In this document: positions 26,692 to 26,883 of the stretch, in pieces | How the letters are laid out: each line of letters starts with the position of its first letter | How positions within the stretch are numbered: position 1 is the stretch's first letter | From: Escherichia phage nithesis | Direction: 5' to 3' (one strand) | Sequence record: PV252060.1 | DNA: 64,000 bases | Program-made: the position numbers and the translations under genes | Notes under the pieces: generated by a model | Databases searched by the model: none | Told to the model about the DNA's origin: nothing | What the model saw: only the letters and a program-made list of their open reading frames with translations

Positions 26692-26815
26692 TGGTTACCA
26701 GTGAAGGATTCGAACCTCCGGTTGGAGTCTATAGCTTACCGCAGCAGCCCTCCAATCTAGCGGTGTCACACTTAGTCCAAACTTGAACATGTCAAGCCAT
26801 CTCGTGCAACTGGTA
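26692..26815 (-). ncRNA. tRNA-like element, about 124 nt between matching acceptor halves
   Basis: T arm GGAGG-TTCGAAT-CCTTC plus ACTGGTA-A-CCA 3' end; exact 7-nt complement TACCAGT lies 124 nt away, 2 nt from the next element. Confidence 0.3.
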
Positions 26816-26817
26816 AT

Positions 26818-26883
26818 TGGTTCCGGCGTCTGGACTCGAACCAGAACACTCATGCCGTGCACGACACTAGTACCTACACCGGA
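26818..26883 (-). ncRNA. tRNA-like element (T arm and acceptor only)
   Basis: TCTGG-TTCGAGT-CCAGA T arm, acceptor TCCGGTG/CGCCGGA with A-CCA, but only about 66 nt and no foldable D/anticodon arms by hand. Confidence 0.3.

Follow-up and report, generated by a model that had tools for sequence, protein, structure and literature searches.

The locus examined here raises the question of what kind of RNA ends like a transfer RNA (tRNA) at both termini without having the length of one. In 64,000 nt of DNA from Escherichia phage nithesis (PV252060.1), the whole of which is called the window below, a first-pass annotation made from the letters alone had pointed to two tRNA-like elements of non-canonical length, here named A and B, between positions 26,692 and 26,883. 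The window matches coliphages of the N4-like genus Gamaleyavirus (PE007, ECBP1, Bp4 and St11Ph5, 92-97% identity). By the annotation of N4 and related phages, its 3590-aa open reading frame (ORF) at 14140-24912 on the plus strand is the counterpart of the N4 virion RNA polymerase. A and B represent two new families of tRNA-like non-coding RNAs from phages, both of narrow distribution; RNAs of this kind have been known since T4 species 1 RNA was described. We lean slightly towards the view that they are stable, phage-specific, non-decoding RNAs that would be matured by host enzymes, the same cuts releasing the neighbouring RNAs. The first-pass annotation was right about the elements themselves and overlooked their strand, their conservation and the RNAs around them.

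Detection of elements A and B

The observation is real and lies far beyond chance. We scanned for elements that combine a T loop and a T stem (no fewer than 4 of its 5 pairs formed, with G53-C61 required) with an acceptor stem paired at 7 of 7 positions and a terminal NCCA. The window contains three independent elements of this type, namely B, A and an odd tRNA further downstream (26248..26173), whereas 200 dinucleotide-preserving shuffles of the window gave a mean of 0.005 elements in the same scan. Both A and B lie on the minus strand, and B is located 5' of A in the direction of transcription with 2 nt (AU) between them. In both, an acceptor stem of 7 bp is combined with a T stem of 5 bp that closes a UUCRANY loop, a discriminator base and CCA; neither has the full set of a D arm and, at the canonical distance, an anticodon stem of 5 bp with a 7-nt loop. 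The textbook T arm of A and its end, written as ACTGGTA-A-CCA, were found as the first-pass annotation had described them, and so was B with its T arm and acceptor within about 66 nt, 2 nt from A; B is effectively a minimal tRNA-like RNA without a D arm. The exact 7-nt acceptor partner reported for A exists as well, but the 124 nt given as the distance to it are the full length of A including CCA.

General tRNA models did not recognize the two elements. With default settings, ARAGORN called neither A nor B, with or without the intron option. The calls that it made over A and B at lowered thresholds (-ps80/-ps90) were low-scoring and mutually inconsistent and were discarded, among them a 'tRNA-Pro' with an 82-nt intron across both elements, a 96-nt 'tRNA-Ser' and 'tmRNAs' (transfer-messenger RNAs) with implausible tags. 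Rfam RF00005 had no match in 26692-26883 at the gathering score and none at E <= 10, Rfam tmRNA families had none inside A or B, and RF02553 (Y RNA-like, YrlA) had none in the window. The intron and tmRNA options of ARAGORN and a tRNA covariance model, which had been suggested as checks, hence gave no usable call.

The proposal that A is a tRNA interrupted by a single insertion or an intron did not survive. We made 1776 single deletions of 25-61 nt each in A and ran ARAGORN on every product; 539 of them yielded a call, with at least 10 different anticodon calls and poorly paired stems. Since these calls scatter over anticodons with mismatched stems, no unique excision restores a cloverleaf, and the calls mirror only the perfect acceptor and T arms. 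A departs from a tRNA at two separate sites, a hairpin in the D loop and the replacement of the anticodon arm. We infer that A and B do not decode codons, because the loop of B has 6 nt, the 7-nt loop of A sits on an arm of 10 bp with a bulge, and neither element matches the tRNA model. AlaRS identity is absent from both elements and CysRS identity (U73) is absent from B; CysRS needs U73, and B carries A73.

The two elements are not protein-coding either. On the minus strand between ~27.88 and 25.95 kb there is no ORF of at least 50 aa except one of 94 aa across A and B, which we rejected as spurious. It cannot be conserved, because the order of A and B is reversed in Klebsiella phage KP8 and because N4 and cp20 carry B without A.

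Structure and conservation of A and B

The sequence of B is UCCGGUG-UAGGUACUA-GUGUC-GUGCAC-GGCAU-GAGUGU-UCUGG-UUCGAGU-CCAGA-CGCCGGA-ACCA, with A73 as discriminator, an encoded CCA and C-G as pair 3:70 (Table 1). Its connector and its loop GUGCAC(A) are invariant across the variants; the loop counts 7 nt (G-U-GCA-C-A) in the KP8 and cp20 copies but 6 nt in those of N4 and the window phage. By BLAST, the B region is present in 69 phage records, and the N4 copy of B is 100% identical to that of the window. Together with a 64-nt module directly 5' of it, B forms a block of 135 nt that is 97% identical between the window phage and N4, whereas the flanking protein genes are merely 65-72% identical. 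In cp20, B is located within an ordinary tRNA array. Nine distinct sequences of B were available from N4, Gamaleyavirus, Kaypoctavirus and Efbeekayvirus cp20. Over its 17 pairs 99.3% of the alignment cells are paired, and 6 pairs are altered on both sides; none of 500 shuffles equalled this result, and slid partners were at most 46.6% paired. The two-sided changes fall mainly in the central stem (GUGUC/GGCAU, GCGUU/AACGU and ACCCU/AGGGU), and pair 6:67 changes from U-G to C-A in cp20. A covariance model of B (R1) gave its members 85-97 bits and ordinary tRNAs or other matches at most 28.4 bits. A metagenome scan for diverse relatives returned nothing beyond 7 near-identical copies of B.

A also carries A73 and an encoded CCA, and it keeps canonical tRNA numbering up to G19 with U8, A14, G15, G18 and G19 in place. 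After the hairpin in its D loop and the D-stem analogue, a 12-nt linker leads to the long arm, whose loop has CUGCGGU (C-U-GCG-G-U) as its central 7 nt and which is separated from the T arm by just 2 nt. All eight distinct variants of A have exactly 124 nt, and this length and a core of ~45 invariant nucleotides are unchanged across Gamaleyavirus and Kaypoctavirus. Over 33 pairs, 99.6% of the alignment cells are paired, compared with at most 47.3% for slid partners; 5 pairs, distributed over the acceptor and T stems and the D-loop hairpin, are altered on both sides. There are three acceptor haplotypes (UACCAGU/ACUGGUA, UACUGGU/ACCAGUA and UAUCAGU/ACUGAUA), and compensatory changes from A-U to G-C in the T stem and from U-A to C-G in the inserted hairpin. 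Pairs 3:70, 4:69 and 5:68 vary freely, 3:70 being C-G or U-A. Between G38 and C96 only positions 59 and 67 vary, so that there is nearly no covariation test in this part; the one-sided change from G-U to A-U in pair 67:83 is compatible with a nested arm. With the covariance model of A (R2), its members score 154-158 bits and the next best match, a class II tRNA, 31.7 bits. Pattern scans of IMG/VR for diverse relatives of A and B returned close variants only, no further variant of either came from relatives of the neighbouring SSB gene, and our literature searches found no description of the two elements.

The helices of A and B are real, as indicated by the compensatory changes, by the high pairing relative to the slid controls and by RNAalifold, which was run independently and returned the same helices for both. 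Selection rather than decay is indicated because B is 100% identical to its N4 copy amid genes of 65-72% identity, because the length and the core of A are invariant, and because both families are sharply bounded.

Proposed maturation and function

What A and B have kept is what host tRNA enzymes read, namely the acceptor, the T arm, the elbow nucleotides, A73 and CCA. The decoding part is exchanged for a conserved non-tRNA module, which in B is the stem with the palindromic GUGCAC(A) loop and in A the D-loop hairpin together with the long arm and core. We propose that RNase P cuts the precursor 5' of every tRNA-like element; acceptor stem, T arm and NCCA are features of RNase P substrates. 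Host 3' exonucleases would then trim the 3' ends back to the encoded CCA. In this way A and B would be matured and stabilized as a natural 'tRNA scaffold', with T-loop enzymes among the host machinery involved, and the same cuts would free the tmRNA-type RNA described below, the 64-nt module and the RNAs downstream. A separate function would reside in the conserved non-tRNA modules. We hold this combination of processing and scaffold with moderate confidence. The suggestion of the first-pass annotation that the elements may be tRNA-like processing signals fits the RNA-only operon in which they lie and its tRNA-type spacing.

An operon of RNAs only

A and B belong to an RNA-only unit of ~1.9 kb (~27.86..25.95 kb, minus strand) that closes the early/middle gene block of this N4-like phage. 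In the direction of transcription it begins with ~450 nt of conserved RNA, the tmRNA-type 'tag RNA' and element C. The 64-nt module, B and A come next, followed by a further conserved stretch of ~440 nt, the odd tRNA with its anticodon loop of 6 nt, tRNA-Ile(AAU), a covarying hairpin and a terminator (Table 1). The tRNA-like units are separated by spacers of 2-10 nt and have an encoded CCA, resembling E. coli tRNA operons. A Pfam scan of the ORFs that flank the operon found no RNA-processing or repair enzymes. By eye, the boundaries between modules repeatedly show a motif (A/U)AUUAUG(A/G), both in the RNA island of the window (26250..27500, minus strand) and in KP8 and N4, with CCUAUUAUGAAC, AAUUAUGGGGGUAAG and AAUUAUGUAGGGGUAUG as examples.

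Table 1 Features of elements A and B and of the surrounding RNA operon
Feature	Position	Strand	Remarks
Element A, tRNA-like RNA	26815..26692	-	124 nt; from sequence
A, acceptor 5' strand	26815..26809	-	UACCAGU, 7 bp
A, acceptor 3' strand	26702..26696	-	ACUGGUA
A, hairpin inserted in D loop	26798..26780	-	15-19 nt; D-stem analogue then closes
A, long arm replacing anticodon arm	26755..26722	-	34 nt: 6 bp, 5-nt bulge, 4 bp, loop
A, T arm	26719..26703	-	GGAGG-UUCGAAU-CCUUC
A, ACCA	26695..26692	-	
Element B, tRNA-like RNA	26883..26818	-	66 nt, D arm absent; from sequence
B, acceptor 5' strand	26883..26877	-	7-bp stem
B, connector	26876..26868	-	UAGGUACUA, 9 nt including invariant GG; joins acceptor to 5-bp stem
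B, anticodon-like stem-loop	26867..26852	-	6-nt loop GUGCAC
B, T arm	26845..26829	-	loop UUCGAGU
B, acceptor 3' strand	26828..26822	-	
B, ACCA	26821..26818	-	
Conserved module	26947..26884	-	64 nt, directly 5' of B; from comparison with N4
Element C, third long tRNA-like domain	27077..26952	-	3' domain of tag RNA; acceptor UGUGGUG/CACCACA
Tag RNA, tmRNA-type, unannotated	27410..27078	-	weak match to Rfam tmRNA_permuted
Tag RNA, helix Ha	27410..27320	-	
Tag RNA, antisense arm	~27325..27283	-	~40 nt, just 5' of tag
Tag RNA, tag ORF	27269..27237	-	ANDDVILMAA*, 10 codons
Tag RNA, hairpin	27221..27202	-	
Tag RNA, pseudoknot-like element	27190..27158	-	
Tag RNA, helix Hb	27157..27074	-	
Odd tRNA	26248..26173	-	6-nt anticodon loop AAACCA, encoded CCA; ARAGORN 'tRNA-???', Rfam 40.7 bits
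tRNA-Ile(AAU)	26167..26093	-	sole canonical tRNA of operon; Rfam 64.8 bits
Promoter candidate, sigma-70-like	27887..27860	-	head of ORF-free stretch; 9/12 matches with TG
Intrinsic terminator	25971..25942	-	strong; ends operon; 9-bp stem with 5 G-C pairs, then U run

The 64-nt module is found in N4-like and in some T1-like phages, always directly 5' of a tRNA-like element. The slot 3' of it is occupied either by B or by unrelated tRNA-like elements of 127-145 nt, as in L072, L049 and L051; an end-forming role of the tRNA-like elements would fit, because those in this slot are interchangeable. The module contains a hairpin GCCAGG-UGGAAUC-CCUGGC that covaries in L079. Element C of the window has a degenerate T loop of 9 nt (AGAUCAGUA), and 4 nt are shared between the 5' strand of its acceptor and the 3' strand of helix Hb, which precedes it. 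Homologues of C in T1-like and lambdoid phages (L027, L031, L094 and L109) have a canonical T arm with UUCGAUU and tails of ACCA, ACCC or ACAC; the T1-like C is another long tRNA-like element with a replaced anticodon arm. These islands repeatedly contain long elements whose acceptor, D and T arms are canonical and whose anticodon arm is replaced by ~70-75 nt. One of them, in L059 (1017-1148), is 132 nt long and reaches 46 bits with the Rfam tRNA model; its acceptor, D and T arms are perfect, and it has 75 nt instead of the anticodon arm. Further elements of 127-145 nt occur in N4-like RNA islands in L072 (1437-1564), L049 and L051 (3844-3988).

Downstream of A, the odd tRNA has normal acceptor, D and T arms and is annotated as tRNA-Thr or tRNA-OTHER in relatives. 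The tRNA-Ile has the unusual anticodon AAU, and its CCA is not encoded. Within the conserved stretch of ~440 nt, a non-coding block of 94 nt (26542..26449, minus strand) is 97.9% identical to N4, whereas the genes there are 65-72% identical; its closing stem differs in a compensatory manner, by eye, between N4 and the window, and it matches no Rfam family. The hairpin 3' of tRNA-Ile (26078..26024, minus strand) has the stem GCCGG/CCGGC here, AUUGG/CCAAU in N4 and ACUGG/CCAGU in KP8, with the loop UGAGACAGU. KP8 also has a tRNA-like gene (L005, 914-988) with the determinants of alanine identity (G3:U70, A73 and CCA) whose 'anticodon arm' is a 6-bp stem with a tetraloop; it resembles an RNA of the tmRNA tRNA-like domain only.

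The tag RNA and its antisense arm

The match of the tag RNA to Rfam tmRNA_permuted is weak (29.4 bits for 27324..27237, compared with a gathering score of 47), and the weak tmRNA matches, which lie in the tag RNA, range from 27 to 36 bits, all under that score. The tag frame reads GCA AAC GAU GAU GUU AUU CUG AUG GCG GCG UAA; a start codon is absent, and there is an in-frame UAG 8 codons upstream. The encoded peptide ANDDVILMAA compares with ANDENYALAA of E. coli tmRNA. In two pattern scans of IMG/VR, the tag RNA was found in many contigs with a tag of 10 codons in each parsed copy, including the variants ANDDVVLMAA, ANEEMYLAVA, ANDDLMLMAA, ANEEAYLMVA, ANDEQFLAVA, ANDNTFLAVA, ANSDQYLAVA and ANNETYLMVA. 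Synonymous changes are abundant, with CUG, UUG or UUA for Leu and GCG GCG, GCU GCU, GCA GCC, GUA GCU and others as the last two codons. By its predicted coding pattern, the frame is a translated tag of the tmRNA type. Upstream of the resume codon A-U-A is kept at -6 to -4, like A84-U85-A86 of E. coli tmRNA, nucleotides that are known to have a role in the host RNA.

Tag RNA is carried by N4-like, T1-like, T5-like-sized, ViI-like, P22-like and lambdoid phages. Its place in HK620 is the late leader, where it is flanked by pR'/qut and the annotated terminator tQ, and its core is present without annotation in 494 of 5426 complete E. coli genomes (~9%). In none of the carriers did we find a tRNA-like domain with G3:U70 in tmRNA topology. 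A and B share the operon with the tag RNA, but the two elements are also found without it, and it without them. Two ~180-kb viral contigs, L046 (10489-10911) and L060, contain a bona fide circularly permuted tmRNA gene called by ARAGORN, with the tag ANDDVYMVRAAA and an acceptor G-U pair. According to a census from 2014, phage tmRNAs occur only in mycobacteriophages and Bacillus phage G (PMC4131195). In our literature searches neither the tag RNA, nor the tag peptides, nor a phage RNA acting on tmRNA was described.

Just 5' of the tag, a conserved antisense arm complements nt 68-106 of E. coli tmRNA. These host nucleotides extend from the 3' strand of pseudoknot 1 through the resume region and the resume codon into the tag, of which they include codons 1-6. 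The complementary blocks are UAGUUUUCGU(C), GUU, GCGAC, UUUGCGG and (C/U)UUUUUA; the window has a perfect 10/10 match followed by three further collinear blocks. When a 420-nt segment of each of 12 diverged variants was aligned locally to the reverse complement of tmRNA, the best hit fell on this site in all 12, with z = 2.7-10 relative to 300 dinucleotide shuffles. This alignment replaced RNAduplex free energies as the test, which we dropped as many 45-mers reach about -38 kcal/mol. A stretch that we had taken for an analogue of the tmRNA D loop, GAUAGUUUUCG, was abandoned in favour of the antisense reading. The tag of the phage has diverged, and the arm complements the host tag and not its own. 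This suggests that the phage RNA could pair with host tmRNA and offer a replacement tag by means of the host tRNA-like domain and SmpB. If the host tRNA-like domain were used, it would be explained why the tag RNA needs no acceptor of its own. A possible second antisense stretch (27510..27576, minus strand) faces nt 286-353 of tmRNA (T arm and 3' side of P2) and starts with the perfect 10-mer GGCGGGAGUU; with a borderline z = 3.0 and a block that is not kept in L067, it is probably due to chance. If the pairing with host tmRNA were true, it would represent a new viral route of interfering with trans-translation and explain an unannotated element in ~9% of E. coli genomes.

Alternative explanations

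Several points weigh against the proposed processing and scaffolding of A and B. RNase P cleavage and the stability of the products are inferred from anatomy, and the covariation of both elements is that of 8-9 closely related sequences, in which the long arm and the D-stem analogue of A never vary and gain no covariation support. The promoter candidate at the head of the operon is weak, as the number of promoter-like sites in the region is not above the shuffled expectation. A role as punctuation alone would not account for two adjacent elements 2 nt apart, for the invariant core of A or for the invariant loop of B. A search for a target or partner was likewise negative: BLAST of A and B against the 5426 E. 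coli genomes gave no match, and A, B, C and the 64-nt module have no similarity to E. coli tmRNA in sense or antisense orientation. The separate function that our explanation leaves to the modules could take a specific form if A and B were decoys or sponges, whose anticodon-like loops (Cys-like G-U-GCA-C-A in B, Arg-like C-U-GCG-G-U in A) titrate an anticodon nuclease or a modification enzyme off real tRNAs. For the modules, our most concrete guess is a decoy that engages some anticodon-loop-reading host factor, yet as an account of both elements we rate it as rather unlikely. Both loops are invariant while the stems of B and A covary, a U is kept at the U33 position in both, and the operon has another tRNA with a damaged anticodon loop, the odd tRNA, with more of them in KP8; phage tRNAs are known to counter tRNA-cleaving defences. 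However, no E. coli defence or enzyme is known to be aimed at tRNA-Cys or tRNA-Arg loops of this sequence, the length of the B loop differs between N4 or Gamaleyavirus and the other phages, and the GUGCAC palindrome could equally be a kissing-loop dimerisation site. A tentative and, taken as a whole, improbable joint reading would combine these ideas: A and B would give the tag RNA and other RNAs ends defined by RNase P and would also be tRNA-scaffolded decoys, in an operon that hijacks the host RNA machinery and whose tag RNA anneals to host tmRNA to offer its own tag with the host tRNA-like domain and SmpB.

The remaining alternatives are less probable than processing with scaffolding. The start of A 2-4 nt after the 3' ACCA of a short form of the tag RNA in KP8, ST4 and L067 would fit an end-forming role for A; it could also mean that A or B is a part of a trans-translation system, as an acceptor partner for the tag RNA or as a mimic of the tmRNA domain that titrates SmpB. 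A long tRNA-like domain follows the tag RNA in other phage groups as well, and mycobacteriophage DS6A RNA is a tmRNA tRNA-like domain alone (PMC4131195). We nevertheless consider such a part in trans-translation quite unlikely, as G3:U70 is absent from A and B and the 3:70 to 5:68 pairs of A are free to vary, N4 has B without tag RNA, HK620 and the T1-like, T5-like and ViI-like phages have tag RNA without A or B, the antisense arm would make a phage-encoded acceptor needless, and RNase P would strip any 5' extension from a tRNA-like domain. We rejected A and B as the tRNA-like domain of a tmRNA, whether one-piece or permuted, on the missing G3:U70, on their occurrence independently of the tag RNA and on the lack of a matching 5' acceptor strand upstream of the tag. 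Decaying, functionless tRNA pseudogenes from a larger phage cluster are a disfavoured and very improbable source of A and B. They lie in a tRNA cluster, the T arm of A resembles N4 tRNA-Ser (24 nt, 92% identical), class II tRNAs are nearest to A by covariance model, and the tRNA content differs widely among N4-like phages; decay is contradicted by compensatory substitutions that keep each variable helix paired, by the full conservation of B between genera with genes of 65-72% identity, by the invariant length of A and by the absence of intermediate model scores between the two families and ordinary tRNAs. Least credible of all is a decoding role, with B as a D-armless tRNA-Cys and A as an intron-containing or extended tRNA, in spite of the 7-nt loop of B with U33 and GCA in KP8 and cp20, the D-armless tRNAs that function in animal mitochondria and the many artificial deletions of A that give an ARAGORN tRNA call. 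The loop of B has 6 nt here and in N4, with C at position 37 and A73 instead of U73, RF00005 remains without a match, and the deletion calls are spread over at least 10 anticodons with mismatched stems. The 124 nt of A would moreover not suffice for a tRNA together with a self-splicing intron, and A has neither a bulge-helix-bulge motif nor a match to a ribozyme family.

Phage tRNA clusters are usually seen as helpers for codon usage. Of the five tRNA-shaped genes here, however, only one is able to decode, and the rest are conserved as structures, a pattern that suggests tRNA mimicry serving something other than translation. The two families of A and B are small and have sharp limits, and they extend to N4, a classical phage, which makes deletion genetics and end mapping straightforward. 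They also flag the RNA-only operon, which we judge to be the most interesting outcome of this analysis; its tag RNA looks as if directed against tmRNA, the ribosome-rescue RNA of the host.

Comparison with known systems

In the 'tRNA scaffold' engineered for E. coli, a foreign module takes the place of the anticodon arm while acceptor, T and D parts give processing and stability. This is the exact layout of A, C and the 132-nt element of L059; the scaffold is a laboratory tool, and its natural use by phages is putative. In MALAT1 mascRNA and in mitochondrial 'tRNA punctuation', a tRNA-like fold recruits RNase P and sets the end of a neighbouring RNA. The layout here is alike, with tag RNA, C, module, B, A, further RNAs and tRNAs in a row. 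Those systems, however, are eukaryotic or organellar, and the cleavage of A and B is a prediction; A and B also carry conserved extra modules, for which a mere cleavage signal would have no need. Metazoan mitochondrial tRNA-Ser(AGY) shares its outline with B: besides the acceptor and the T arm, both have an anticodon-type stem-loop, and a short connector stands in for the D arm. In contrast to B with its 6-nt loop in a host whose machinery uses canonical tRNAs, the D-armless tRNAs of metazoan mitochondria decode, have 7-nt loops and rely on dedicated partner proteins.

Like A and B, the tRNA-like domain of tmRNA and the DS6A RNA are acceptor and T arm with CCA and without anticodon function, the latter as a phage-encoded RNA (PMC4131195). 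Unlike the tmRNA domain, A and B have no G3:U70, no match to Rfam tmRNA families and no similarity to E. coli tmRNA. Among N4-like phages, LUZ7 has a single intergenic space that yields abundant processed small RNAs (PMC9163698).

The closest analogue of A and B, by architecture, is T4 species 1 RNA. Species 1 (rnaC, 139 nt) and species 2 (rnaD, 119 nt) are, like A and B, small RNAs beside tRNAs in a phage cluster; they are stable and of unknown function, and their lengths are similar to that of A. In rnaC, as in A, a canonical T arm (CCGGG-UUCGAAU-CCCGG) lies near the 3' strand and long hairpins replace the rest of the cloverleaf. The likeness is one of architecture and not of homology, as model R2 gives rnaC 14.3 bits, level with ordinary tRNAs. 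The annotated end of rnaC (...CGUUUCGUA) does not encode CCA and rnaD has no T arm, unlike A and B, and the two pairs of RNAs belong to different types of virus, N4-like podoviruses in the case of A and B and T4-like myoviruses in the case of rnaC and rnaD.

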